From Escherichia phage ECP_WGS_SA1: a stretch of 64,000 nucleotides of DNA. Shown one piece after another: positions 1-64,000 of the stretch. The stretch is taken from the sequence record PQ604604, one strand, 5' to 3'. Below the pieces are notes generated by a model, which was given only the letters and a program-made list of their open reading frames with translations, was not told the DNA's origin and searched no databases. A program made the position numbers and the translations under genes. Position 1 is the first letter of the stretch. Each line of letters starts with the position of its first letter.

Positions 1-360
1 ATTTTGAATTAATTTAAATTAATTTTTTTCTACATCCTCATACTTATACTAAACTTATATTTATACGTATTATCCGTAAGATATAAGTAAAAACAAAGAC
101 TTGCGGCAATACGGATGATACGTCATGATACGCTTCAACCAGCCAGCAGCGGCTAAGTCATTGATTTGCATAACAAGCGGCGAAAGGGATGGATTTCTTT
201 TATGCGTATCAAACAGTACACCACGCACCACGGTCCGATATTCATTCAGCACTATGATTTATGTACGTTTACAGCCAATTTGAACATCAATCTGCACTTG
301 AATATAATGTTCATTCATTGTATAATTCACACTATTAATTTGCACTATGGGATTTGCACT

Positions 361-834
361 ATGAGTCAAGATTATGTAGCAATGCCTGAAGACTTTGAAG
401 ACCCGCGATTTGCAGAGCATAATCAGGCATTATTCGATGAGTTCATTGACCTTGTTATTCAGGGCCATGACATGCGCGCAGCTTTTGCACTAGTATTTGG
501 CATGGAGGTTGCGACCGATAACTACACTGGCCAGCGAATCCTGTGCACGCAGCGCAACCCGTACTACAAGATGCGCTACAAAAAGCGTATGGAAGAGATG
601 CCATTGAAGGAATTGTGGAGTGTAAAGAGTTCCATCCACAATTTAGTGAAGCTTGTGCGTGATCCAGAAGTCGCGGCTTCAGCCAAGCTTAATGCCATTC
701 GTGAACTGAATATCATCTACGGCATCACGATGATTGATGAAAATGGCAATAGTAAAATGGGCCGTTCCATGGACGATTTCTACAAGGATTTTGGAGAGGC
801 AGCCAAAGAGGGTGAGCAATTCTCCCGCCACTAG
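361..834 (+). CDS. Hypothetical protein, 157 aa; start chosen at the ATG embedded in the second repeat copy
   Basis: In-frame part of ORF 166..834; the region upstream of 361 is repeat-rich and looks non-coding. Confidence 0.5.
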   Translation: MSQDYVAMPEDFEDPRFAEHNQALFDEFIDLVIQGHDMRAAFALVFGMEVATDNYTGQRILCTQRNPYYKMRYKKRMEEMPLKELWSVKSSIHNLVKLVRDPEVAASAKLNAIRELNIIYGITMIDENGNSKMGRSMDDFYKDFGEAAKEGEQFSRH

Positions 835-851
835 CCAATTTGCACTATAAA

Positions 852-889
852 ACGGCCCTAGAACACATTTTCTCCACTTCTAGGGCCGT
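852..889. other. Perfect 12-bp inverted repeat ACGGCCCTAGAA / TTCTAGGGCCGT with a 14-nt loop
   Basis: Read directly; lies just after the stop of CDS 361..834; no clear U-tract on the + strand. Confidence 0.5.
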
Positions 890-948
890 TGGTAATACGA
901 CGGGGAAGGCTGCAACCATAAACGCGTTATAAAGTGTATTATTATAAG

Positions 949-1212
949 TCATCTTTTAGTCGCTTTACGTAACAATTTACGACCTTCCGCCGTCCAGTCG
1001 AACGACTCCACCAGCAGATTTGCACTATAACCTAAGACGATGCGCCCCTTCTCGTTATCGACCCGCCAACAAGTCTCGAATAGCATTCGATTTGCACTAT
1101 TAACTATCGCCGCAACGCGCGTTGGGTAAGCGCAATTTGCACTATGGTCGTAAAGGGATAAGGTGCGACCACTGCCGATGGACAACGTAGCGATGAGAAT
1201 AAGCGTATTCAT
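949..1212 (-). CDS. Hypothetical small protein, 87 aa, hydrophobic N-terminus; contains three antisense copies of the repeat motif
   Basis: ORF with GGTGG upstream of the ATG; may instead be non-coding repeat DNA. Confidence 0.3.
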   Translation of the reverse strand: MNTLILIATLSIGSGRTLSLYDHSANCAYPTRVAAIVNSANRMLFETCWRVDNEKGRIVLGYSANLLVESFDWTAEGRKLLRKATKR

Positions 1213-1262
1213 AAGCCACCAATTTGCACTATGAAAAGCGACCCCGAAGGGCCGCCATTCGA

Positions 1263-1889
1263 TTAGATAATCTGGAAGGTGTAGGACTTGTTGCCGAACT
1301 CGAAGTTCAAGCGCCCAGCTTCCTTAAGCTTCATGCGGAAGCGAATGTGTTTGCTATCCGGTAAGCCCAGCGCGGCGAACGCTACGCGGACCGATTTGAA
1401 CTCGCCTACACCCTCGACCATAACGGCGTTACGGGTGAGACGCTTTTGTGCCACTTCCTTGTTATCCCAACTTTTTGCAATACCTTCGCTATTAGAACGG
1501 CGATGGGAAGGAGTTCCATTTTGCACTACGCAATTTGCACTATCGTTTAGGCCGCTCTTAACGAAGGCTTCATACTCTTCGTCGGTCATCGCGTCGAGTT
1601 CTTCCTGAGTCGGCTCGGCCTTTTTAACGACCGCACGCGCCTTATGCGTTTTTACATCGCTGGACACTTCCTCGCGCGGCTTCGCGTCGGGGATGGGCAA
1701 TTCGTTGGACGGCTCATCGAGCGCGTTTAAGGACTCGATTAACGCGATGACGCGAGTCTCAGCGGTGCGACGGTCCACAAACTTCTTAATCGGTTTTGAG
1801 CCGGAGTTGGCATTATAGAATGCAACGAGGTCGGCGGTCTTAGTTGCGATAACGTCGCCGCTAGTAGAAAAGCGATTTAAGCTAACCAT
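1263..1889 (-). CDS. Hypothetical protein, 208 aa
   Basis: ORF with AGGAG-TTTATT-ATG initiation context. Confidence 0.55.
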   Translation of the reverse strand: MVSLNRFSTSGDVIATKTADLVAFYNANSGSKPIKKFVDRRTAETRVIALIESLNALDEPSNELPIPDAKPREEVSSDVKTHKARAVVKKAEPTQEELDAMTDEEYEAFVKSGLNDSANCVVQNGTPSHRRSNSEGIAKSWDNKEVAQKRLTRNAVMVEGVGEFKSVRVAFAALGLPDSKHIRFRMKLKEAGRLNFEFGNKSYTFQII

Positions 1890-5666: not shown

Positions 5667-7070
5667 NNNAGCGCCTTGAGTGAATTATTTNGCTGCNTTC
5701 AGCGCGACTATNTCTGNNNNNNNNNNNNNNNNNNNNNNNNNNNNNNNNNNNNNNNNNNNNNNNNNNNNNNNNNNNNNNNNNNNNNNNNNNNNNNNNNNNN
5801 NNNNNNNNNNNNNNNNNNNNNNNNNNNNNNNNNNNNNNNNNNNNNNNNNNNNNNNNNNNNNNNNNNNNNNNNNNNNNNNNNNNNNNNNNNNNNNNNNNNN
5901 NNNNNNNNNNNNNNNNNNNNNNNNNNNNNNNNNNNNNNNNNNNNNNNNNNNNNNNNNNNNNNNNNNNNNNNNNNNNNNNNNNNNNNNNNNNNNNNNNNNN
6001 NNNNNNNNNNNNNNNNNNNNNNNNNNNNNNNNNNNNNNNNNNNNNNNNNNNNNNNNNNNNNNNNNNNNNNNNNNNNNNNNNNNNNNNNNNNNNNNNNNNN
6101 NNNNNNNNNNNNNNNNNNNNNNNNNNNNNNNNNNNNNNNNNNNNNNNNNNNNNNNNNNNNNNNNNNNNNNNNNNNNNNNNNNNNNNNNNNNNNNNNNNNN
6201 NNNNNNNNNNNNNNNNNNNNNNNNNNNNNNNNNNNNNNNNNNNNNNNNNNNNNNNNNNNNNNNNNNNNNNNNNNNNNNNNNNNNNNNNNNNNNNNNNNNN
6301 NNNNNNNNNNNNNNNNNNNNNNNNNNNNNNNNNNNNNNNNNNNNNNNNNNNNNNNNNNNNNNNNNNNNNNNNNNNNNNNNNNNNNNNNNNNNNNNNNNNN
6401 NNNNNNNNNNNNNNNNNNNNNNNNNNNNNNNNNNNNNNNNNNNNNNNNNNNNNNNNNNNNNNNNNNNNNNNNNNNNNNNNNNNNNNNNNNNNNNNNNNNN
6501 NNNNNNNNNNNNNNNNNNNNNNNNNNNNNNNNNNNNNNNNNNNNNNNNNNNNNNNNNNNNNNNNNNNNNNNNNNNNNNNNNNNNNNNNNNNNNNNNNNNN
6601 NNNNNNNNNNNNNNNNNNNNNNNNNNNNNNNNNNNNNNNNNNNNNNNNNNNNNNNNNNNNNNNNNNNNNNNNNNNNNNNNNNNNNNNNNNNNNNNNNNNN
6701 NNNNNNNNNNNNNNNNNNNNNNNNNNNNNNNNNNNNNNNNNNNNNNNNNNNNNNNNNNNNNNNNNNNNNNNNNNNNNNNNNNNNNNNNNNNNNNNNNNNN
6801 NNNNNNNNNNNNNNNNNNNNNNNNNNNNNNNNNNNNNNNNNNNNNNNNNNNNNNNNNNNNNNNNNNNNNNNNNNNNNNNNNNNNNNNNNNNNNNNNNNNN
6901 NNNNNNNNNNNNNNNNNNNNNNNNNNNNNNNNNNNNNNNNNNNNNNNNNNNNNNNNNNNNNNNNNNNNNNNNNNNNNNNNNNNNNNNNNNNNNNNNNNNN
7001 NNNNNNNNNNNNNNNNNNNNNNNNNNNNNNNNNNNNNNNNNNNNNNNNNNNNNNNNNNNNNNNNNNNNNN
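5667..7070. other. Almost fully masked block of N; adjacent N-runs at 5322-5605, 7194-7307 and 7354-7611
   Basis: Read directly. Confidence 0.99.
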
Positions 7071-8009
7071 NAGCAATTGTCCGTCTGCAACGACTTCATA
7101 CGGTTGAATATATGCACGACTGTCACGNAAGTGAAAATCACCAACNCCATAGTTCATNACACCGTTCATGCTTGGGCCAACGGTGCCTGTGTTNNNNNNN
7201 NNNNNNNNNNNNNNNNNNNNNNNNNNNNNNNNNNNNNNNNNNNNNNNNNNNNNNNNNNNNNNNNNNNNNNNNNNNNNNNNNNNNNNNNNNNNNNNNNNNN
7301 NNNNNNNTGATCCTGTGCCNCCCATGGAAGTTGGGACGATGCTTTGATCAGCNNNNNNNNNNNNNNNNNNNNNNNNNNNNNNNNNNNNNNNNNNNNNNNN
7401 NNNNNNNNNNNNNNNNNNNNNNNNNNNNNNNNNNNNNNNNNNNNNNNNNNNNNNNNNNNNNNNNNNNNNNNNNNNNNNNNNNNNNNNNNNNNNNNNNNNN
7501 NNNNNNNNNNNNNNNNNNNNNNNNNNNNNNNNNNNNNNNNNNNNNNNNNNNNNNNNNNNNNNNNNNNNNNNNNNNNNNNNNNNNNNNNNNNNNNNNNNNN
7601 NNNNNNNNNNNGATGCACCAGCATTTGCTGATTGATGATATTGACCAAACCATGAACCAGTCAAGGCATTGAGATTTATTCCGTTAGGAATCTCTCCAAA
7701 GTTTCGGACAGTACCCGTCAAAGTTGCGGCAGTGGTTCGAATAGAAAGCATGTCGCCAGCCGCCCATGCACGCGCTGCAGTTCCTTCCTGTGCACGCTGC
7801 ACGGTCAGGACGTTTCCAACAACGGCTGTTACTGTGACGATTTCGAATTGGAGGCCTGTTGCGGCGTCAACGATTGTCGCCACTACACGCTCGTTTGCGC
7901 CCAAGGTCGGAAAGCCCGACCCTGAGCGAATTGTGATTGTGGTGTCTGAAGTCGTCGTTGGCTGAGCGAGCGCGACCTCAAAGTTGTTTTTGAATATTAG
8001 CCTTGGCAT
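5685..8009 (-). CDS. Putative tail fibre or receptor-binding-like protein; largely masked by N, 3' end uncertain
   Basis: Long ORF with GAGGA upstream of the ATG at 8009; readable N-terminal 130 aa is rich in T/S/G/V as in phage fibre N-termini. Confidence 0.4.
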   Translation of the reverse strand: MPRLIFKNNFEVALAQPTTTSDTTITIRSGSGFPTLGANERVVATIVDAATGLQFEIVTVTAVVGNVLTVQRAQEGTAARAWAAGDMLSIRTTAATLTGTVRNFGEIPNGINLNALTGSWFGQYHQSANAGAXXXXXXXXXXXXXXXXXXXXXXXXXXXXXXXXXXXXXXXXXXXXXXXXXXXXXXXXXXXXXXXXXXXXXXXXXXXXXXXXXXXXXXXADQSIVPTSMXGTGSXXXXXXXXXXXXXXXXXXXXXXXXXXXXXXXXXXXXXXNTGTVGPSMNGXMNYXVGDFHXRDSRAYIQPYEVVADGQLXXXXXXXXXXXXXXXXXXXXXXXXXXXXXXXXXXXXXXXXXXXXXXXXXXXXXXXXXXXXXXXXXXXXXXXXXXXXXXXXXXXXXXXXXXXXXXXXXXXXXXXXXXXXXXXXXXXXXXXXXXXXXXXXXXXXXXXXXXXXXXXXXXXXXXXXXXXXXXXXXXXXXXXXXXXXXXXXXXXXXXXXXXXXXXXXXXXXXXXXXXXXXXXXXXXXXXXXXXXXXXXXXXXXXXXXXXXXXXXXXXXXXXXXXXXXXXXXXXXXXXXXXXXXXXXXXXXXXXXXXXXXXXXXXXXXXXXXXXXXXXXXXXXXXXXXXXXXXXXXXXXXXXXXXXXXXXXXXXXXXXXXXXXXXXXXXXXXXXXXXXXXXXXXXXXXXXXXXXXXXXXXXXXXXXXXXXXXXXXXXXXXXXXXXXXXXXXXXXXXXXXXXXXXXXXXXXXXXXXXXXXXXXXXXXXXXXIVALXAXK

Positions 8010-8047
8010 TTTACGGTCCTCGTTTTGTCGACAACCGTATTATAACC

Positions 8048-8389
8048 TTAATTTCTTTTGAGAGGAATATGACGGTTGCTGTCATTATTTGGTTTAATAA
8101 TGAGCATAAAAACGATTAGAAAGATGATGGCTGATATACTTAATTCAATCAGAGCGGCTTGAGATATGGATTGGTCTTCGTGATACTGCTTTTGCATTTC
8201 CGCTTTCTTCTGAGCGCAAACTTCAGGTGATATATAATCGCCTTTTGAGTTGCCATAATAAATCTCGCCATTCTCAGAAATAAGTCTGCCGCAAATATCA
8301 GTTTCAGCCTTTGCGCTTGACATCATAATGACGGTGCCGATGATAGCGGCAATTGTCCAGATTAGCAGTTGTGATAAAGTGTTGTTCAT
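8048..8389 (-). CDS. Small membrane protein, about 113 aa, hydrophobic segments at both ends
   Basis: Internal Met of ORF 8048..8623 preceded by AAGAGG. Confidence 0.45.
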   Translation of the reverse strand: MNNTLSQLLIWTIAAIIGTVIMMSSAKAETDICGRLISENGEIYYGNSKGDYISPEVCAQKKAEMQKQYHEDQSISQAALIELSISAIIFLIVFMLIIKPNNDSNRHIPLKRN

Positions 8390-8585
8390 GATAACCTCTT
8401 TAAATTCCCTTCCCACATCGGGAAGGGTGAATATTATTTTAAACGAAAGAATAGGCGCGTGCCACACAGAGAGTCCCAACGGCCTTCGCCGTCCCATATC
8501 GAACCAACGCCAGCAGTGATTGGGCCAGCAGAATTGGCGGCATTGGCCCAAGCGAGACGTTTCAACTTCCAACTGCACCAACGAT

Positions 8586-8819
8586 TCACAGTTCACCTCC
8601 AGATTGCAAAACAAGTCCCGCATAGAGGATTGCTAAAGCTAAAGGCGCACCACTTCCAGCTTCTCTATTCTCTTTGATTTGAAGAGTGTCCTTAAGGAAT
8701 TGCAGCTGAACGTTGAATTCATTTTCAATTCCAAGCACTCCAGCTAATTCTTTTACAGAATCTGCATATGCCTTGTCTAGCACTTCTTTTGGTACTGTTA
8801 AAGTCAATTCATTTGCCAT
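8586..8819 (-). CDS. Hypothetical protein, about 77 aa
   Basis: ORF with purine-rich RBS-like sequence. Confidence 0.35.
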   Translation of the reverse strand: MANELTLTVPKEVLDKAYADSVKELAGVLGIENEFNVQLQFLKDTLQIKENREAGSGAPLALAILYAGLVLQSGGEL

Positions 8820-9245: not shown

Positions 9246-9422
9246 ATTACCTCCGGTTTTGAGTTAATATGATTATAACGCAGAGCTTCAGAAAGGCAAA
9301 CTTTTTGTGAATTTANNNTAAAAAAATGGCCAGANNGNNTCTGGCCAAAAGATCACCCTTTATCCACTACTAAGCTGGAATCATAATTTTACTTGATATA
9401 GCTGTCGCAAGCAAACTATAAT

Positions 9423-16313: not shown

Positions 16314-16422
16314 CACTAATTAAGGCGCGGCTATATCGGTTGTTATACATATTCAAACCATAATTATTGTTTGCCTAAGTTTTTTTCATTAGATATAATA
16401 CACAATACTTATTTGAGGGTGG

Positions 16423-55712: not shown

Positions 55713-56795
55713 ATGGCTAGTTTAAGAGAAGAAGCAAAAATAATCGAAGAGTTTTTGACGGAACTCCAAAGAGGCATTCCAGAAGATGAACGCGTCATGA
55801 CCGTGTTTGCGCCTGAAGCAACGGTGCAGACCGACGAGCGCGGCAAAAAGATTAACAGCAGCTTCTGGCCTAAGCCTTGGAAGCTTGGCAAGCCGCTGAT
55901 GCAACATCAGAACGGTTACGCCTGCATAAGTTCAATGCGTAAGTCTCCCAACCCAAAGACAGGCGAGATGCGATACTGGCGCACGGAATCGGCCTTTGGT
56001 CATGGCATGGCGATGATGGTCGACGACATCGGTCACGGTAAAGGGTCTAAAGGCGATTTAGATTTGGAGTTCTTTTTCGAGCGTCTGAAGCCAACCGTCA
56101 TCATTGAGACTTCGCCGAACAACCACCAGCTGTGGTATTTCTTTAAAGAACCAATTGACCATCTTATTCAGTTCAAAGCATTCCTTGGGTCTTTCGTAAA
56201 CATGGTACTCAAGAAGGGCGGCGACAATACGATTAAAGACGTGACGCGCGTGGGCCGTGTTCCTGGGTGCATCAATAACAAGCGTGTGACTCACGACGGC
56301 CCTTATAAATATGTCGATGAGAACGGCGACCCGTTCCGCTGCCGACTTGTCCATGCAGACTATTCTTTGCGCTACACAATCGAAGAGATTTGCCAAGCCT
56401 TCGGTTTCCACGTCGTTATGCCGCAAAAGCGTGAAATTCAAATCGACGTTGACGAATACAAATATGACGCTGTTTGGTATAAGATAGCCCAGCAAATCCT
56501 TGCGCGCAATAAGATGGGCGAAGGGTCCGACGGCGATGTTGTTGAAAATATGTCAGGTAAATGCCGCATCATCTGTCCTTGGGGTGAAGAGCACACCAAC
56601 GGCGACCCATACGGCGCTTATTTTCGCGGCCCCATCCCTGGCGCTGAACATGAATTCGTTTTCGGTTGCGCTCACGACTGTCACCGGAAAGGGGAAGGCA
56701 AGAAAGGATGGACCGCTTTTGTTGAAGCAGTAGTCATGCCTTATATTGAGAATCAACTTGATATGATAAATCGTCGCGCAGGTGGCATAAAATAG
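55713..56795 (+). CDS. Archaeo-eukaryotic-type primase-polymerase (PrimPol-like) with a C-terminal Cys/His cluster
   Basis: hhhDhD-type motif MMVDDIGH; sxH-type motif SPNNH; Cys/His cluster near the C-terminus. Confidence 0.5.
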   Translation: MASLREEAKIIEEFLTELQRGIPEDERVMTVFAPEATVQTDERGKKINSSFWPKPWKLGKPLMQHQNGYACISSMRKSPNPKTGEMRYWRTESAFGHGMAMMVDDIGHGKGSKGDLDLEFFFERLKPTVIIETSPNNHQLWYFFKEPIDHLIQFKAFLGSFVNMVLKKGGDNTIKDVTRVGRVPGCINNKRVTHDGPYKYVDENGDPFRCRLVHADYSLRYTIEEICQAFGFHVVMPQKREIQIDVDEYKYDAVWYKIAQQILARNKMGEGSDGDVVENMSGKCRIICPWGEEHTNGDPYGAYFRGPIPGAEHEFVFGCAHDCHRKGEGKKGWTAFVEAVVMPYIENQLDMINRRAGGIK

Positions 56796-56853
56796 TTTGC
56801 TTTTATTTTTCTAGCAACTATAATCATTTTATGAACTGAAGCAGAGGTGATTT

Positions 56854-57000
56854 ATGCAAAGCGAAGAATTGAACATCGAGCTTGAAGGTTTGTTAAATTC
56901 GTTAGAACCTAAGCCCGTAGAGCTTCCCACCCTTGAAGGTGTCATGGCTCACCACCAATCGGCTGCGGCCAAACACTACTCTGAATTTGTTAAGGGATAA
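56854..57000 (+). CDS. Possible small protein, 48 aa
   Basis: Short ORF with GAGGTG RBS. Confidence 0.3.
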   Translation: MQSEELNIELEGLLNSLEPKPVELPTLEGVMAHHQSAAAKHYSEFVKG

Positions 57001-57001
57001 A

Positions 57002-57292
57002 ATGAACGAACCAAAAATGATGACCACTGAAGAAGCACAAAAACTTCGCGTGGAGAACGAGCTTAAGCTTGTCAATGAAATTCTTCCTCTGTTTAAAGGC
57101 TATGCGGTTGAAGAAGTCGTTGGCGCAATCCTTAATGTGTCGACGCACGTAGCGATGAATCTGAATGCAGAGCGTTTCAATACTTTGCTGACGATCAACA
57201 AATTTACTGTCAGTGCAACATTCACCGTTGAGCCAGTAAATTTTGAAGAAGCTGCAGCCGCAATTCAACAACAGCGAGATCAAGAGGTGTAG
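57002..57292 (+). CDS. Hypothetical protein, 96 aa
   Basis: ORF. Confidence 0.4.
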   Translation: MNEPKMMTTEEAQKLRVENELKLVNEILPLFKGYAVEEVVGAILNVSTHVAMNLNAERFNTLLTINKFTVSATFTVEPVNFEEAAAAIQQQRDQEV

Positions 57293-57293
57293 C

Positions 57294-57557
57294 ATGGGCG
57301 CTTTCCGCAACGAGTTTATTTGGAACGTCACAAGCAGTCTTTCGACTTGTCCTAACTGTGCGAGCGATGTGATCAAGGTGCGGCAACATCGCAATGCAGA
57401 GGAAGGTGCCTGGGAGGACGGCGACCTTGTAGAGTGCCAGTGCTGCTCTCACGAAGGCGTGGTGGAGCTTTACGCAGGAGAAGGTTGTCCACCAGCAGAA
57501 CGTTCAGCACGCGTTGAATGGGATGCGACAGACTACATCGGTGATCCTCAACAGTAA
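57294..57557 (+). CDS. Small Cys-rich (zinc-ribbon-like) protein
   Basis: CPNC ... CQCC pairs; AGAGGTG RBS. Confidence 0.45.
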   Translation: MGAFRNEFIWNVTSSLSTCPNCASDVIKVRQHRNAEEGAWEDGDLVECQCCSHEGVVELYAGEGCPPAERSARVEWDATDYIGDPQQ

Positions 57558-57676
57558 ATTTAGGTATAGATACATATGAAAGCCGTAAAGAAATACACAT
57601 TAATCATTTCCCTTGTAATCATCCTGGGGCTATTATATGTATTGGATATGACATATTATTTGGCAGGGGTGAGTAA

Positions 57677-57967
57677 ATGAATATTGTAATTCTTTATGGT
57701 GAGAATATCAGCGATGACGACATCGAAGTTGCCGTTGATGTTTACGGTATCGATGAGGTGAAACGTGTTGAAGAAATTAATGGCTCAAATCTTAATGAGA
57801 TTGCCAAAGAAGCTGGTTGCCCTTCGGAAGAGATTCTGGTGGTTACTAACGATGACCTGTCTTCTATGGATTGTTTGCGCCGCATCTTCACCGATTGCCA
57901 ATACCTTCATTCTGTTCAGTCAGTAAACAAATTGAGAAAGGCATACGCTGACCAATTTCCTTGCTGA
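57677..57967 (+). CDS. Hypothetical protein, 96 aa
   Basis: ORF. Confidence 0.4.
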   Translation: MNIVILYGENISDDDIEVAVDVYGIDEVKRVEEINGSNLNEIAKEAGCPSEEILVVTNDDLSSMDCLRRIFTDCQYLHSVQSVNKLRKAYADQFPC

Positions 57968-58103
57968 TAGTTCACCAGTTATATTGCTTTAAACTGAGTT
58001 TTACTATATTAATATACAACGCCAGATTTCTGGCGTTTATTTACCGCACCCTGAAAGGATATATCCATGCAACAATATAACAAAGCCGTATCAGGAGGAT
58101 TAA

Positions 58104-59774
58104 ATGTCAATTGAACATGACAATCTTCCAGAGGATACAGGTGATGAATTTGGTGCAATCTTTGACGAAATTCAAGACGCTGGTGTTTCAGAAGAAATGC
58201 AAGCGGCAGAGCAGCAAGGCACCAGAGCTAAAATCAGCCTACAGCACAAGGCTGTTGAGAAAGATGCAGAGCGCATGGAATGCTACGGTGAAGAAGACTT
58301 GGTTGAAAGAGCACGTTTGCTCGCCTCACTTCAGGTAATCAAGTTCCCTCATTATAAACCGACGAAAGATGATTTTGTTCTTCAGGCGGACCGGACGAGT
58401 GACATGAACCGTTATGCGGTTTTCGACGCGTTGTTTGATAAGGGAAGCGGCGTTGTTCCATTCCCTCACAAAGATACTTTTCGTGGGCGCTTAGTCGACC
58501 ATCGCGGCGAAACATTCACCGACCGGACGTTGGAAGTCACAGAGATAGTTGCCGCTGTCGACGCAGCAGGACTGTCCAACCCAAATTCACGTCAGGTCGC
58601 TCAATCCTATAAGGAATGGGCCATGCGTTATCAGCGCGATGACCTGATGGACTTCTTCTACAAGAAGCTGCCTGAATGGGACGGTACTGCGCGCATTGAG
58701 AAATACCTTATCGAGCTATTCCGACCGTTCGATACAGAGTTAAACCGACAAATCGGTGTGTATTTTTGGCTATCGCTCTATAACCGCCTGACCAACCCTG
58801 GCTGTCAAGCGCCAATCTCCATTGCGCTCATCGGCGGCCAGAACGCAGGGAAGAGTTATTTTAGTAAGCTGCTTTGCGAAGCTATTATGAACGACCGCCA
58901 CGCAACACCGATTCCGTTGAACTTGGCCGCGCAGAACTTCAACCCGTTCTTGCGAGCTATTACGGGTCGCTCAATTATCGCGAACGTTGGCGAGATGACA
59001 GGCTTTAAAAAGGCCGACATCGAAAACATGAAAGCATTCCTGACTAAGACGGAAGATGACCTGGACTTCAAATTTGAAGACACGCAGGTTAAACCACGCC
59101 AGTGGATTGCGATCATGGACGGCAACGAATACGCAGGCATGCAGCGTGACGATACGGGCAACCGTCGTGTGTATCCTATCTTTGTTGGCCAACTCGCCGA
59201 CAAGGACGGGCAACCGAACTGGTCGAAAGACTTCCAAGCTGACCTTTCCACTTTGAAAGAAGATGTTTGGCAGTTGATGGCTGAGTGCGCTGCGTGGATG
59301 GAGAAGCACGGCGAAGCAGGTTACAATGCCTTTGTTGGTGAAACATCTCGTATGCTTACTGAGTTCAGTAAGAACGAAATGGAACGCGCTCGCGGCGTTA
59401 TCCGTGATGAGATGGTCGACAACGACCTTGTTGAAGTCATCATTACCGCGCCTTATGACCGACATCACAGCGGACGCTGGCACATCACCAGTGGTGCAAT
59501 CGCTATGGGATTCAGAGCTAAGTGCGGCAAGTCGCCTTTCTCACGTACCCTTGCGCCGCACATGTCGAAGCTTGGATTTGAGCCTGCAACCTATCGCAAC
59601 CAGCGTGGCTACTTTACGCCGCTGATTAAGAATGAAGCAGGGGAATACATTTCTGACTTGATGACTATCTTAGCGTATCTTATCCGCGACGAGTCTGACC
59701 CTGAAGATATTGAATTCTTGAAGAAGGTTATTGAACGCAAACGTTCTTTAGGAAGAGATAAGGATGAATTCTGA
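58104..59774 (+). CDS. P-loop NTPase, D5/VirE-like primase-helicase
   Basis: Walker A IALIGGQNAGKSYF in the central region; position after the primase. Confidence 0.5.
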   Translation: MSIEHDNLPEDTGDEFGAIFDEIQDAGVSEEMQAAEQQGTRAKISLQHKAVEKDAERMECYGEEDLVERARLLASLQVIKFPHYKPTKDDFVLQADRTSDMNRYAVFDALFDKGSGVVPFPHKDTFRGRLVDHRGETFTDRTLEVTEIVAAVDAAGLSNPNSRQVAQSYKEWAMRYQRDDLMDFFYKKLPEWDGTARIEKYLIELFRPFDTELNRQIGVYFWLSLYNRLTNPGCQAPISIALIGGQNAGKSYFSKLLCEAIMNDRHATPIPLNLAAQNFNPFLRAITGRSIIANVGEMTGFKKADIENMKAFLTKTEDDLDFKFEDTQVKPRQWIAIMDGNEYAGMQRDDTGNRRVYPIFVGQLADKDGQPNWSKDFQADLSTLKEDVWQLMAECAAWMEKHGEAGYNAFVGETSRMLTEFSKNEMERARGVIRDEMVDNDLVEVIITAPYDRHHSGRWHITSGAIAMGFRAKCGKSPFSRTLAPHMSKLGFEPATYRNQRGYFTPLIKNEAGEYISDLMTILAYLIRDESDPEDIEFLKKVIERKRSLGRDKDEF

Positions 59775-60421
59775 TGAATAAAGCAATCAACATCGCTAAA
59801 TTCTTTCAAAATCTCGGTGAACTGAACAAAGAGAGTGACGTTCACGGAGAAGAAATGAACCGGATGATTTCAACCGTGTTGCGTGGTTTTGGGTACGATA
59901 AGGACTCCATCACCTGTAAACGCACGAAGCTTGTCGATGAGACATACCTTTACTACGTTGAATTGCGCGTAGGCAAAGATTTGATGATCATCGACCCTAA
60001 ATTGGAAGGGGCGCATTGTTTTGGCGCTCACCCTCGTGCAAGTGAATTCAAGGGGCGCGGTCGCAACCGACTCCAGAAGCTTGATGATGCAGGCGACCTG
60101 AACATCTCAATGTTCCTCAAAGAGTTCCTTGCGCTGCCGAAGGTCGCATCTTCAACGGGTCGTGATGACCTGTGCAAGATTGGATTCAGAACTAAAGATT
60201 TGCGCAATGCGCTACGCAAGAAGGGATTTGTGCCTTCTTATGATAACGTCGCCGCGCTGATGGCTTCCATGGAGGAAGCTGAAGCAATGGATAAGGTGCG
60301 CGGATATTTCCTGAATACAGGCTACACAATGTATGAGTGGCACAACAAAGGATTGACGGTCGCCGACTTCATCTATTCATTAGAGCAGAAGTATGTACGC
60401 AATATGCAGGCCACAGGATAA
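59774..60421 (+). CDS. Hypothetical protein, 215 aa
   Basis: ORF. Confidence 0.4.
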   Translation: MNKAINIAKFFQNLGELNKESDVHGEEMNRMISTVLRGFGYDKDSITCKRTKLVDETYLYYVELRVGKDLMIIDPKLEGAHCFGAHPRASEFKGRGRNRLQKLDDAGDLNISMFLKEFLALPKVASSTGRDDLCKIGFRTKDLRNALRKKGFVPSYDNVAALMASMEEAEAMDKVRGYFLNTGYTMYEWHNKGLTVADFIYSLEQKYVRNMQATG

Positions 60422-60460
60422 TTATCATCAAAATATTTGCTTTTCTGACGAGGTGATATT

Positions 60461-60685
60461 ATGATTAATTTAGACAGGATTGAGTTAGCACTTAGTACCT
60501 TAATCAAATATTACCAGTTTGCTTTTAAGGCAAGTTTGTTTGGCTTGTTCAATCCTCATCAAGCAGCAAAGGCGCGAAGCAATGCCAACCGCCTGCGCTG
60601 CACTGGTATAGTCATCCACGACCGGATATTGACAGAGGGTAGATTCAGCCATGAATACACAAGGGAGAATAACAAAGCAACGTAG
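60461..60685 (+). CDS. Hypothetical protein, 74 aa
   Basis: ORF with GAGGTG RBS. Confidence 0.4.
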   Translation: MINLDRIELALSTLIKYYQFAFKASLFGLFNPHQAAKARSNANRLRCTGIVIHDRILTEGRFSHEYTRENNKAT

Positions 60686-60860
60686 GGCTTTACAAGTCCT
60701 CATCTACTACCTGACACGCCTTTATCCAACGGCGCACGAGCAGAATCCATCAACGGGTCACCTGTTTAAGCGCCGTAACCTTTCGTTGAAAACATTCGCT
60801 TTAATCCAATACGACCGCTACCTGGACGGGCGCTACTGCGGCCCGAAGGACTCACTATGA
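60651..60860 (+). CDS. Hypothetical protein, 69 aa
   Basis: ORF; overlaps the previous gene by 35 bp. Confidence 0.3.
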   Translation: MNTQGRITKQRRALQVLIYYLTRLYPTAHEQNPSTGHLFKRRNLSLKTFALIQYDRYLDGRYCGPKDSL

Positions 60861-61135
60861 TTACTACATACAAAGTATTCTTTGTCAAATGCACATCATC
60901 AATTGATGACCAGTTTACTGCTGGAAAGAATTATCCCGTGATTTCTGAGTCAAGGTTAGATATAATCTTGAACGATCATGAAATCTATGAGCCGATGCCA
61001 GCAACTGCGTTTGATGTTATCGGTCACGTTCGGATTAAGACGAATGTTGAAACGATGCATGACCCGTTGTTCAAGAAACAAATTAAGAATGCCATGCAAG
61101 ACTTTTGCGCGGCTATGTTCAAATACTATAAGTGA
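60857..61135 (+). CDS. Hypothetical protein, 92 aa
   Basis: ORF. Confidence 0.4.
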   Translation: MITTYKVFFVKCTSSIDDQFTAGKNYPVISESRLDIILNDHEIYEPMPATAFDVIGHVRIKTNVETMHDPLFKKQIKNAMQDFCAAMFKYYK

Positions 61136-61142
61136 GTTGAAG

Positions 61143-61364
61143 ATGAGCAAGAAAACTCTTAAGGCTGGCGACCGTATCCGTTGGGTGTCGGGACAAAATA
61201 TGCGCGCAGGCACCATCCTTGAGCTGGATCAATACCTTACTGATTCGCGCGGTCGCAATCATTACCGTGTTCGAATCGATACGGTAAAAGAAGATGACAA
61301 GTCACTTGTTGGTGAAGTGGTCATCGTTACTCCACGTCAAATTAAGGCGGCTTGTGAAGCATGA
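61143..61364 (+). CDS. Hypothetical protein, 73 aa
   Basis: ORF; start at MSKKTLKAG. Confidence 0.4.
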   Translation: MSKKTLKAGDRIRWVSGQNMRAGTILELDQYLTDSRGRNHYRVRIDTVKEDDKSLVGEVVIVTPRQIKAACEA

Positions 61365-61516
61365 ATAAATTTCAGTTCAACGATAACAAGATAAGTAAAG
61401 CAGACGCAATCAAGCAGCTTCGCCGCGTACTTGAAGCCAGCGGCCATACGAAAGAGCGTGCACGCGTCCTAGCCAAAGAACATTATAAACGTTTTGTGTC
61501 ACAAATCAGAGGTTGA
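61361..61516 (+). CDS. Possible small protein, 51 aa
   Basis: Short ORF with ATGA overlap. Confidence 0.3.
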   Translation: MNKFQFNDNKISKADAIKQLRRVLEASGHTKERARVLAKEHYKRFVSQIRG

Positions 61517-61518
61517 CC

Positions 61519-61866
61519 ATGGCTCATGTTAAAGACGAAGTTTTATACGGCGCAGAGATTAAGAAGCGNNNNNNNNNNNNNNNNNNNNNNNNNNNNNNNN
61601 NNNNNNNNNNNNNNNNNNNNNNNNNNNNNNNTGGCGTATCCGGCACGAAGGAGATGGGCGTGTTGGTGAAAGACATTCGCGTTGGGGATGTCATGGTCAT
61701 CGACCGACAAGCGCGAGTCGTTATCCAGGTGCAACCGAACGATGATGAAGGGTGTGTCCTATTGAAGCTGAAGAAGCTTTCATCCAGCCCAGCAAAGGCT
61801 ATCATCAAGAAGGTCTGGCCCGAAGGATTACGCAAACTCATTCGTCGACCCGTGGAGAATGTGTGA
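61519..61866 (+). CDS. Hypothetical protein; internal N-run
   Basis: ORF. Confidence 0.35.
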   Translation: MAHVKDEVLYGAEIKKXXXXXXXXXXXXXXXXXXXXXXGVSGTKEMGVLVKDIRVGDVMVIDRQARVVIQVQPNDDEGCVLLKLKKLSSSPAKAIIKKVWPEGLRKLIRRPVENV

Positions 61867-62102
61867 TGGAAGATTATATTAACGCCATGTATATTGCATT
61901 CTATGTCGTTCAACTTCCCAATGGCGCGGTATTTTATGGCGAGTACACCTTTGACGTTCAATATGACGTTTCAGAGCGTACAGTGTTAACAAGAGAGTTG
62001 ATTGCGGACCTTAAGGACGACATCAAACGCGTCGCGCGGCAGCAGTTCAATTTGGATGACACAGTCATCGTTCGTATAACCGGAATAACAGAGGTGCAGT
62101 GA
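61866..62102 (+). CDS. Hypothetical protein, 78 aa
   Basis: ORF with stop/start overlap. Confidence 0.4.
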   Translation: MEDYINAMYIAFYVVQLPNGAVFYGEYTFDVQYDVSERTVLTRELIADLKDDIKRVARQQFNLDDTVIVRITGITEVQ

Positions 62103-62431
62103 TGACCCGTGATCAGATACTCGCCGCGCATGAACGTGNNNNNNNNNNNNNNNNNNNNNNNNNNNNNNNNNNNNNNNNNNNNNNNNNNNNNNNNNNNNNN
62201 NNNNNNNNNNNNNNNNNNNNNNNNNNNNNNNNNNNNNNNNNNNNNNNNNNNNNNNNNNNNNNNNNNNNNNNNNNNNNNNNNNNNNNNNNNNNNNNNNNNN
62301 NNNNNNNNNNNNNNNNNNNNNNNNNNNNNNNNNNNNNNNNNNTCTATCGATTCTCTCACCGGACGGGTGATACAAAGATAACAAGGACACGTGACCAGAT
62401 AGAGATTGACCTACTCCACTATGTAAAATGA
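62102..62431 (+). CDS. Hypothetical protein; mostly masked
   Basis: ORF spanning N-run 62139-62342. Confidence 0.3.
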   Translation: MTRDQILAAHERXXXXXXXXXXXXXXXXXXXXXXXXXXXXXXXXXXXXXXXXXXXXXXXXXXXXXXXXXXXXXXXXXXXXXYRFSHRTGDTKITRTRDQIEIDLLHYVK

Positions 62432-62433
62432 AT

Positions 62434-62460
62434 ATCAAAAAGGTGAGCTAAATGCTTGCC
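62434..62460 (+). repeat. 27-bp sequence TCAAAAAGGTGAGCTAAATGCTTGCCT, repeated exactly at 63974-64000
   Basis: Read directly at both positions. Confidence 0.85.
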
Positions 62461-62516
62461 TTTTCTTTTATCAATACTTATACTCTTTTCATCAATACTA
62501 ACAAGCGAGGTGAATT

Positions 62517-62834
62517 ATGATTTACTTAGGCATCGACCAGGAACAAGACGAGCGGTTAGGAAGCGTGTTAAACGTAGAATTAAACACAGCTGTACACGTC
62601 AAGCCTTGGCCAGAGGCTCATCCCGACGTAGTTGTACCCGTTGCGCCTTGGACGCGTTACGTTGCCATTGACGATGAAGGCCTTGTGCATTGTTACTCAG
62701 AAAAACCGACATACTTCGAAAAGTATCGCCAATGGCTTATGACTGGTTGGGCAAAGGTGCGCTGTTGCGGCGAAGTCGGTCTGGAAGGCTGGAGCTTCAA
62801 GGCTAGTGAATCGTGTGTCGAGGTGCAATTATGA
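62517..62834 (+). CDS. Hypothetical protein, 105 aa
   Basis: ORF with GAGGTG RBS. Confidence 0.45.
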   Translation: MIYLGIDQEQDERLGSVLNVELNTAVHVKPWPEAHPDVVVPVAPWTRYVAIDDEGLVHCYSEKPTYFEKYRQWLMTGWAKVRCCGEVGLEGWSFKASESCVEVQL

Positions 62835-63049
62835 ATGCCGCGCTGGGTAAGCTGTCTTTCAACAAGCGCAATGAGTTGCGCATGGTGTCTCGTTTTCAAN
62901 NNNNNNNNNNNNNNNNNNNNNNNNNNNNNNNNNNNNNNNNNNNNNNNNNNNNNNNNNNNNNNNNNNNNNNNNNNNNNNNNNNNNNNNNNNAACAATTACN
63001 ANATGCTGCTTATAANCTGCAGCAATATGCTATGGAGTATGCAAAATGA
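62831..63049 (+). CDS. Hypothetical protein; mostly masked
   Basis: ATGA overlap start; N-run 62900-62990. Confidence 0.3.
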   Translation: MNAALGKLSFNKRNELRMVSRFQXXXXXXXXXXXXXXXXXXXXXXXXXXXXXXXQLXXAAYXLQQYAMEYAK

Positions 63050-63330
63050 AGATGCAAAGATGTCCACATTGCTTGTCCACGATGCGGCTTACTGCTGAAG
63101 AATATTTACATCACGTTAACGTTTGTGAGGCTAATCCTGAAAATTCGACGCGTTACTATTATCACTATCACGCAGAAGCGGAAGATGGATCAGGCGCAAC
63201 AGGAATCGTTACCACGAAAGAAATGGTGATCACCAAAAAGGCGTATGAAAGTCTGCTTGATACAATAAAGGAAGTATCTGGAAAAGAAATAATCTGCATC
63301 AAATCTTTGTCTTTCTTACACGAGGTGTAA
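63046..63330 (+). CDS. Small CxxC protein, paralog 1
   Basis: N-terminus MKMQRCPHCLSTMRL ... H..C.ANP. Confidence 0.45.
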   Translation: MKMQRCPHCLSTMRLTAEEYLHHVNVCEANPENSTRYYYHYHAEAEDGSGATGIVTTKEMVITKKAYESLLDTIKEVSGKEIICIKSLSFLHEV

Positions 63331-63331
63331 A

Positions 63332-63715
63332 ATGAGAATGAAACGTTGTCCGTATTGCCACGATGTAATGCATCTTCCGCATGAAGAGTTCGTGCAGCAC
63401 ATGACTAATTGTGATAAGAATCCTAAGAGCGAAAGCCAGCTTGAAGAAAGAATGTTTCTGGTGTCATTCAANNNNNNNNNNNNNNNNNNNNNNNNNNNNN
63501 NNNNNNNNNNNNNNNNNNNNNNNNNNNNNNNNNCATTGAGAAGCGACATTGACTCAATGCAGCTTGCGGCCTGGATTAACGTTAAGGAAGGCATCACTCC
63601 GCACTTTATCGCGCGCATCCAGTCCCAGATTCTACAAATCAAGCGCGAATACAACCGTGACATCACTGAAGTGAAGGTTCTTTCCATAACGCCGATGAAT
63701 AAGGAGTTACCGTGA
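63332..63715 (+). CDS. Small CxxC protein, paralog 2; internal N-run
   Basis: N-terminus MRMKRCPYCHDVMHL ... H..C.KNP. Confidence 0.45.
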   Translation: MRMKRCPYCHDVMHLPHEEFVQHMTNCDKNPKSESQLEERMFLVSFXXXXXXXXXXXXXXXXXXXXXXLRSDIDSMQLAAWINVKEGITPHFIARIQSQILQIKREYNRDITEVKVLSITPMNKELP

Positions 63716-63972
63716 ACAAGGGTCCGATGACTAAACTGGCCGTTGCCGCGCGGAAGCTTCGACAGGCCGTTAATGGGTCGCGGCCCGTGGTGTTAACACT
63801 CGACGACGCAAAGGCGCTGGTAGAGCTACTCGACGAGCACAACCGACGCAAGAATCTGGAGAACACATTACGCTGGCGCGTCACTCCAGCCGGACGGGAG
63901 AGCGAGAAGAAAGCTTACTTGCGACGCAAACTAAGGTCAGTCGGCCTTCACGAAGAGGCGAAGAAGATTTGA
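63712..63972 (+). CDS. Hypothetical basic protein, 86 aa
   Basis: GTG start with AAGGAG RBS. Confidence 0.4.
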   Translation: MNKGPMTKLAVAARKLRQAVNGSRPVVLTLDDAKALVELLDEHNRRKNLENTLRWRVTPAGRESEKKAYLRRKLRSVGLHEEAKKI

Positions 63973-63973
63973 T

Positions 63974-64000
63974 TCAAAAAGGTGAGCTAAATGCTTGCCT
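63974..64000 (+). repeat. Second copy of the 27-bp repeat, at the window edge
   Basis: Identical to 62434-62460. Confidence 0.85.

Follow-up and report, generated by a model that had tools for sequence, protein, structure and literature searches.

Two copies of a predicted terminator-plus-promoter cassette in the small-gene array of a Wifcevirus phage

Locus and genomic context

The sequence analyzed here, referred to as the window, is a stretch of 64,000 nucleotides from Escherichia phage ECP_WGS_SA1 (PQ604604). Near its end lies a rightward array of small genes, in which two copies of a short direct repeat bracket a block of five genes (Table 1). Both copies begin 1–5 nt past the TGA stops of co-directional plus-strand genes, and the second is cut by the end of the window. 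Searches of PHROGs and Pfam with the five bracketed genes gave one PHROG of unknown function and one sub-threshold DUF match.

In a megablast search, positions 60400–64000 of the window matched the same positions of Escherichia phage vB_EcoM_WFH (MK373776.1/NC_048194.1), a member of the genus Wifcevirus with a genome of 71,283 bp. Base-by-base comparison of 56000–64000 with MK373776.1 gave no indels and 3.4% substitutions, mostly at every third base. Because the two sequences are colinear without indels and the whole window contains 32 runs of N, the window is considered to be a reference-guided consensus of a WFH-like phage in WFH coordinates. Among the genomes fetched, none was identical to the window (best 96–98% per segment), and exact-protein look-ups with the product of the window gene 61863–62102 gave no match.

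Table 1 Features of the repeat locus and related sites in the window
Feature	Position	Strand	Basis or remark
TGA stop of the upstream gene (WFH_00084 homologue)	62429..62431	+	3 nt before copy 1; CDS 62102..62431 in MK373776.1
Repeat copy 1	62435..62464	+	27-mer 62435–62461; 30 nt with TTT common to copy 2 in relatives
Predicted intrinsic-terminator hairpin, copy 1	62437..62469	+	Terminator scan, folding, public annotation
A5 of hairpin, copy 1	62437–62441	+	
5' stem GGTGAGC, copy 1	62442–62448	+	
Loop TAAAT, copy 1	62449–62453	+	
3' stem GCTTGCC, copy 1	62454–62460	+	
T-tract TTTTCTTTT, copy 1	62461–62469	+	
Putative sigma-70-like promoter, copy 1	62456..62484	+	-35 TTGCCT, 17-nt spacer, -10 TATACT
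Putative -35 TTGCCT	62456–62461	+	Same bases as the 3' stem arm
Putative -10 TATACT, copy 1	62479–62484	+	
Box TTCATCAA(G/T)	62488..62496	+	Directly after the -10; common to both cassettes
RBS GAGGTG and ATG, first gene of the block	62506..62519	+	CDS 62517..62834
Five small genes between the cassettes	62517..63972	+	MK373776.1 annotation
Individual genes of the block	62517–62834, 62831–63049, 63046–63330, 63332–63715, 63712–63972	+	Annotation
TGA stop of the last gene of the block	63970..63972	+	1 nt before copy 2
Repeat copy 2	63974..64000	+	Truncated by the window end; hairpin core 63981–63999
Continuation of copy 2 (relatives)	past 64000	+	TTTTTATTTGCCTGTAT-TATACT-TAG-TTCATCAAG-CAAAGGAG..ATG
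Further TTGCCT-type site	9272–9299	-	27–32 nt upstream of a start codon
Further TTGCCT-type site	16371–16399	+	27–32 nt upstream of a start codon

Copies and extent of the repeat

A search of the whole window located the 27-mer TCAAAAAGGTGAGCTAAATGCTTGCCT exactly twice, both times on the plus strand. The initial annotation had reported an exact 27-bp repeat at this locus; the repeat is real, and its second copy, at the window edge, is where it had been placed, but the first copy starts one base later than the 62434–62460 given there. The annotation had also called for a search for more copies, and no third copy was found within the 64-kb window at up to three mismatches. In 100 dinucleotide-preserving shuffles, the recurrence of the 27-mer was never reproduced.

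In the reference record and the 25 related genomes, the identity between the copies extends to 30 nt (the 27-mer plus TTT). Beyond this core, the likeness is patchy up to the next start codon; a T-tract, TTATACT, TTCATCAAG, an RBS, and ATTATGA are common to both copies. The course of copy 2 past position 64000 rests on relatives, since the window follows a reference genome and has no exact counterpart among the genomes fetched. As judged from these alignments, the repeated unit is an intergenic cassette of ~80 nt only, present in two copies. The initial annotation had proposed to extend the sequence past 64000 and align what follows each copy, with unrelated sequence and a lack of further copies as the outcome that would count against it. 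The comparison with relatives gave a divided answer: the genes after copy 2 are unrelated to those after copy 1 and there is no third copy in the window, but the non-coding stretch after copy 2 is still related to its counterpart, and the repeat is therefore meaningful. It is non-random and functional-looking, but ordinary and familiar in kind.

The predicted terminator hairpin

The sense RNA of the repeat reads A5-GGUGAGC-UAAAU-GCUUGCC-UUUU(C/U), and the tail of copy 1 is U4CU4. The hairpin consists of a 7-bp core stem with two G·U pairs, which A:U pairs extend to 11–12 bp, and a 5-nt loop; a U-rich tract follows it directly (UUUUCUUUU or UUUUUAUUU). A terminator scan of copy 1 detected 11 pairs followed by a T-run at 62438–62464. 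The fold energies calculated with ViennaRNA are -13.7 kcal/mol for copy 1 and -14.7 kcal/mol for copy 2, and both values are inside the range of the other annotated terminators of the phage (-12.4 to -17.4 kcal/mol). The 19-nt core folds with -8.7 kcal/mol on the plus strand versus -3.2 kcal/mol on the minus strand, where A·C mismatches replace the two G·U pairs. Such strand-specific stability is indicative of an RNA-level function oriented with the genes rather than of a DNA palindrome.

Both hairpin cores are annotated as "regulatory: terminator" in MK373776.1 (62442..62460 and 63981..63999), and the sister record WFC (MK373777.1) has both terminators annotated as well, giving -10.10 as the energy of each. 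These entries are ARNold predictions (Korf et al. 2019, PMC6563267). The assignment of both copies as terminators, which is the central point here, is thus already public. A regulatory site was among the options listed in the initial annotation, and this option was right, as the copies form canonical intrinsic-terminator hairpins directly after stop codons. Rfam returned no match beyond MicX, which was far below the threshold.

The features shared with Rho-independent terminators of Escherichia coli and its phages are a G+C-containing hairpin whose loop is short, A- and U-tracts on its 5' and 3' sides, respectively, and a site directly past a stop codon in the sense orientation. Compared with the other terminators of the phage, the stem of the cassette is weaker, with two G·U pairs and only four G-C pairs. 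Unlike in ordinary intrinsic terminators, the 3' arm overlaps the -35 element of a putative promoter, and the two copies are identical in sequence. Both copies are very probably Rho-independent transcription terminators. Their perfect identity over 30 nt, including the loop, exceeds what a terminator alone needs.

The putative promoter and the leader

Each cassette has TTGCCT within the 3' stem arm and TATACT downstream of it. In the reference record, the spacer between the two hexamers is 16 nt in copy 2. The hexamers match the sigma-70 consensus at 9 of 12 positions in both copies; matches of this quality are at chance level in this sequence (18–20 found versus ~19 expected). Because they are as frequent as in shuffled sequence, the consensus match alone proves nothing. 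The window contains four sites of the more specific pattern TTGCCT-N15-18-TA(T/G)A(A/C)T, versus 0.05 expected, and three of the four are 27–32 nt upstream of a start codon. With the sole exception of one genome, where it is changed to the perfect consensus TATAAT, every copy retains TATACT, and the spacer and the leader drift while the hexamers stay. A promoter is also suggested by the position of the nine genes after copy 2, which would otherwise presumably need read-through of two terminators. On the basis of the conservation pattern and the position, it is reasonably likely that a sigma-70-type promoter is attached to each hairpin.

The box that directly follows the -10 element in both cassettes is probably the transcription-start region, and the -10/box motif has no occurrence in the window outside the two cassettes. 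The biology of Wifcevirus is little studied (PMC11990801), and no transcript-end or transcript-start data for any Wifcevirus were found in the literature.

Conservation within Wifcevirus

The locus was read in 25 further genomes, which comprised 10 GenBank phages, 11 metagenome or Logan assemblies chosen as encoding the same or a related flanking protein, two IMG/VR contigs, one ENA contig, and the WFH record. Each of the 25 carries the two copies at orthologous positions, separated by 1247–1548 nt, and the repeat also occurs in two places in each of the 28 GenBank Wifcevirus records of the phage collection. In alignments of 12 genomes (joined by the window in the case of copy 1), variation is limited to 2 of 56 columns of the core, compared with ~29% of the columns of the flanking coding sequence; the contrast corresponds to a binomial P of ~1e-6 when the columns are treated as independent. 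If the gene before copy 2 (16% varying columns) is used instead, the contrast keeps its direction but is smaller.

The variants avoid the stem, the T-tract, and both hexamers, and fall mostly in the loop, the spacer, and the leader. The exceptions are found among a few private variants, which include an A>T change in the loop of copy 2 in Bas101, a 1-nt deletion in the loop of copy 2 in two genomes, an A-tract that is one A shorter, a single T>C change in the T-tract, and a stem-breaking G>T change in copy 2 of SP13. With this one disruptive singleton, the stem is otherwise invariant in ~50 copies, and compensatory changes are absent; without covariation, the alignment neither confirms nor contradicts the structure. 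No private variant was common to both copies of one genome. The identity of the copies therefore reflects selection or too little elapsed time, not gene conversion.

Occurrence outside the genus

An IMG/VR scan with the frame AAAAAGG-N5-TAAAT-N5-CCTTTT gave 82 matches, and all five N pairs were complementary in 40 of them, compared with ~0.7% by chance. With so many complementary stems in unrelated viral contigs, the frame is a generic terminator shape. This degenerate scan, which was meant to detect diverged homologues, returned unrelated terminators instead. The exact 23-mer core was found only in Wifcevirus-like contigs of the metagenome collection and, among representative genomes, only in one 943-bp contig. 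Asteriusvirus jumbo coliphages, for example Ecwhy_1 and JNE01, have a near-identical intergenic sequence, AAAAAGGAGAGC(A/TT)AATGCTCTCCTTTTCTTTT; however, their hairpins have full Watson–Crick stems, lie between convergent genes, and are followed by no promoter. The likeness is most likely a convergence on a common terminator shape.

Variation of the genes around the cassettes

Several genomes carry additional genes next to copy 1. In WFC, SP13, and three assemblies, a gene of 64 aa is inserted directly 5' of it, flanked by a 21-nt direct repeat of the cassette start (AAATGAATATCAAAAAGGTGA), within which AAAAAGGTGA provides the RBS of the inserted gene. One assembly has an 82-aa gene directly 3' of copy 1, between repeated RBS/ATG sequences. 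Across the genomes, copy 2 is succeeded by five different genes. In a crude gene-adjacency analysis, the two cassette boundaries had three and four alternative successors, compared with four to six for several cassette-free boundaries of the same array, and the enrichment of mosaic junctions at the cassettes was not significant. Plasticity is a property of the entire region, with no demonstrable preference for the cassettes as junctions.

A different arrangement was observed in NZ_JPLE01000312.1, a 943-bp contig in a draft assembly of Xanthomonas pisi, which is presumably phage contamination. This contig has a single chimeric cassette and lacks the whole block; it joins the gene upstream of copy 1 to the gene that follows copy 2 in FEC19-type genomes. 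Up to TATACTC the cassette resembles copy 1, and from AGTTCATCAAG onward it resembles copy 2; the junction expected for the deletion is ...TTATACTCAGTTCATCAAGCAAAGGAG... On each side, the contig is most closely related to a two-copy metagenomic contig (98.9% and 97.8% identity). Because the switch lies outside the 30-nt identical core, at 7–9 nt of shared sequence, a collapse during assembly is unlikely. The deletion form is absent from the 28 GenBank isolate records, neither chimeric junction was found in the IMG/VR scans, and further genomes collected via homologues of the upstream gene had the normal arrangement only. This one short contig hints that the copies may recombine and that phages losing the block may be rare or unfit.

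Discussion

Here, we propose that the 27-mer is the core of a terminator-plus-promoter cassette of ~80 nt that occurs twice in the rightward small-gene array of Wifcevirus. We regard this as likely in view of the anatomy of the copies, their strand-specific pairing, their position after stop codons, and their strong conservation. Transcription arriving from the upstream genes would be stopped or attenuated by the hairpin in the sense RNA. The 3' arm of the stem would double as the -35 element (TTGCCT) of a promoter of the host sigma-70 type, with the -10 element TATACT 16–17 nt further on, and RNA polymerase would restart ~30 nt ahead of the next RBS and ATG. With a terminator and a promoter at each copy, the block at 62517–63972 and the block that follows it would be separate, insulated transcription units. 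The predicted activities provide a testable transcription map of the Wifcevirus small-gene region, in which the units would end at ~62465 and ~64005 and restart ~25 nt later. Wifcevirus phages are of applied interest, and the importance of the finding is modest.

The initial annotation had also considered the boundary of a duplicated unit and a conserved gene start or leader. A pair of direct repeats separated by 1.5 kb, with a run of small genes starting at each, would suit the ends of a duplicated gene block; however, BLASTP finds no similarity between the proteins encoded after copy 1 and those encoded after copy 2, no DNA repeat besides the cassette was found to link the two blocks, and the repeat is confined to the intergenic cassette, which makes a duplicated block scarcely credible. 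In the gene-start reading, GGTGAG would be an RBS and the ATG in the loop would begin a leader peptide or a true N terminus. This ATG is indeed located 4–5 nt past GGTGAG, in most genomes the frame at copy 2 continues into the downstream gene, that gene begins at this ATG in three public annotations (Bas101, kaset, and AV128), and part of the cassette start is the RBS of the inserted 64-aa gene in WFC/SP13-type genomes. At copy 1, however, the loop ATG (62452–62454) is out of frame with the downstream gene, and the length of its ORF shifts by single substitutions and a 1-nt deletion (22 codons in the window and 18 in WFH, with a frameshift in one genome), and at copy 2, 1-nt indels near the RBS shift the frame relative to the downstream gene in several genomes, among them WFH and WFC, where it is closed. 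The substitutions seen (GCC to GAC, ACC, or GGC; AGT to GTT or ATT) would all be non-synonymous, a single "leader" would head five unrelated genes, and each downstream ATG has a strong RBS of its own. Moreover, GGTGAG and the ATG are buried in the stem and the loop of the hairpin, respectively. A coding role of the repeat was rejected because frame and length are not conserved, the changes would be non-synonymous, and the downstream genes have their own RBS, and a conserved translation start is accordingly very improbable. For annotators, this means that the ATG of the hairpin loop is probably no start codon, though several public records use it. The near-invariance of the 30-mer may be viewed differently, as that of a sequence-specific DNA or RNA site for a phage or host regulator, with the hairpin being secondary; such a regulator would place both units under joint control, for example, as a repressor over the -35 element or as an antitermination factor. 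The 30 nt are identical between the copies, loop included, and hardly change across the genus while the copy-specific spacers differ, and they overlap the -35 element. Against such a site, the loop tolerates the substitution in Bas101 and the 1-nt deletion in two genomes, the symmetry, owing to the G·U pairs, is specific to RNA and the sense strand rather than that of a DNA palindrome, and the shape is generic among unrelated phages. In addition, the PHROGs and Pfam searches of the bracketed genes gave no candidate regulator, and we consider the regulator site improbable.

The terminator-plus-promoter cassette could also serve in recombination. In this reading, the cassettes are above all linkers, comparable to the mobile promoter-early stem-loop (PeSL) cassettes discussed below; homologous exchange between the two copies, or with the cassettes of co-infecting relatives, would excise, insert, or swap the flanked blocks of small genes, and the identity of the copies would be kept for this reason. 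The chimeric single cassette of NZ_JPLE01000312.1, the five different genes after copy 2, the inserted genes that adjoin copy 1 on its 5' side (WFC/SP13-type genomes) and its 3' side (one genome) together with their flanking repeats, and an anatomy that fits the published description of PeSLs are all consistent with such a role. However, the deletion is known from one short contig of doubtful provenance and is seen in none of the 28 GenBank isolates and in no IMG/VR contig. The cassette-free boundaries are equally or more variable (four to six successors versus three to four), the cassettes number only two while PeSLs are numerous, and the copies bear no trace of gene conversion. A primary role as recombination linkers is thus rather unlikely. 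Working PeSL-like mobile cassettes outside the T4-like phages, which would excise and insert self-expressing blocks of small genes, are likewise doubtful. If they existed, the chimeric contig would be a natural excision product, and the 30-nt identity would be kept partly as an exchange site.

PeSLs are composite promoter and stem-loop cassettes of T4-like myoviruses (Arbiol et al. 2010, PMC2839356; Comeau et al. 2014, PMC4122927). They occupy the interval from a stop codon to the following ATG, G·T pairs are frequent in their stems, which can extend over the -35 element, and the cassettes act as exchange points for small orphan genes (PMC2839356, PMC4122927). The Wifcevirus cassettes have the same order of elements: a stop codon in an A/T-rich stretch, a stem-loop with G·T pairs, sigma-70-like -35 and -10 elements, an RBS, and an ATG. 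Like PeSLs, they are situated in a variable region on either side of small genes with no known function, and gene insertions or replacements adjoin them. In contrast to the dozens of PeSLs, there are only two sequence-related cassettes here, and the other terminator–promoter pairs in the genome are unrelated to them in sequence. The GGGG...CCCC stem of PeSLs is absent from the Wifcevirus cassettes. Unlike with PeSLs, the mosaic junctions of Wifcevirus are not confined to the cassettes, whose activities are predicted from the sequence. If recombination between the cassettes is true, the concept of gene shuffling driven by terminator/promoter cassettes would extend from the T4-like phages to an unrelated group of myoviruses. 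As the host of the cassettes is a ~70-kb Wifcevirus, a distant relative of Pbunavirus, and not a T4-like phage, they are regarded as an analogue of the PeSLs and not as a member of this group.

Nature of the window sequence

The coordinates of the window (1–64,000) are exactly those of MK373776.1, the genome of Escherichia phage vB_EcoM_WFH (WFH). Over 56,000–64,000, the two sequences differ by 3.4% substitutions and no indels, and the whole window contains 32 runs of N totaling 3,144 nt. The window has the look of a consensus built by mapping reads from a different Wifcevirus to the WFH genome, a procedure that would hide true indels relative to WFH.

Features in the window and in related phages
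Feature	Sequence	Coordinates	Strand
N run (example)	window	5717–7071	
N run (example)	window	62139–62342	
N run (example)	window	62900–62990	
ATTTGCACTAT array	window	338–1543	+
Terminator	window	853–888	-
Terminator	window	1238–1255	-
Promoter-like site (TTGCCT + TATAAT)	window	9272–9299	-
Terminator	window	9327–9346	
Promoter-like site (TTGCCT + TATAAT)	window	16371–16399	+
Paralogous gene	window	63046–63330	
Paralogous gene	window	63332–63715	
Inserted 64-aa gene	WFC (L005)	7008–7241	
Loop-ATG start call, Bas101_0078	Bas101 (L010)	8284–8595	
Loop-ATG start call, kaset_CDS0079	kaset (L012)	7815–8171	
Loop-ATG start call	AV128 (L013)	8284–8646	

Variation around the two cassettes

Copies 1 and 2 of the 27-mer repeat are predicted terminator hairpins, each within a proposed intergenic terminator–promoter cassette. 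In WFC, an inserted 64-aa gene separates the copy-1 hairpin from the stop codon ahead of it; the same insertion is found in SP13 and three assemblies (L105, L109, and L115). A 21-nt direct repeat, AAATGAATATCAAAAAGGTGA, lies on both sides of the inserted gene, and the 5′ arm of the stem doubles as this gene's putative ribosome-binding site. At copy 2, three public annotations begin the following gene at the ATG in the terminator loop, which lengthens its product by ~20 residues (MLAFLF...). These starts are probably mis-called.

In the five-gene block between the cassettes, two adjacent genes have paralogous N-termini (39% identity over 36 aa) with the common pattern M(K/R)(V/M)(Q/K)RCP(H/Y)C...H...C, and the CxxC...HxxxC arrangement of both appears zinc-ribbon-like. 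About half of the relatives carry a single paralogue, and their cassette spacing is ~1250–1262, as against 1539. The one-gene relatives and their shorter spacing suggest unequal exchange between the paralogues. The only instance seen of a single-cassette form of the locus is the 943-bp contig NZ_JPLE01000312.1, which belongs to a Wifcevirus-like phage of E. coli but lies within the draft assembly of Xanthomonas pisi DSM 18956, where its presence most likely reflects sequencing contamination.

Repeats and promoter-like sites elsewhere in the window

The 11-mer ATTTGCACTAT occurs eight times exactly near the left end, always on the same strand and confined to 1.2 kb inside the ~3.7-kb terminal repeat, whereas ~1.5 occurrences would be expected by chance in the whole window even with one mismatch permitted. 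Two of the copies directly follow minus-strand terminators. The array may be a series of protein-binding sites that belong to an origin, serve a regulator, or act in packaging.

Two more promoter-like sites combine the unusual −35 TTGCCT of the cassettes with a consensus TATAAT, each with a start codon 27–29 nt downstream; the minus-strand site comes after a terminator. Judging from these motifs, the TTGCCT flavor of the −35 element may be common to sigma-70-type promoters of the phage.
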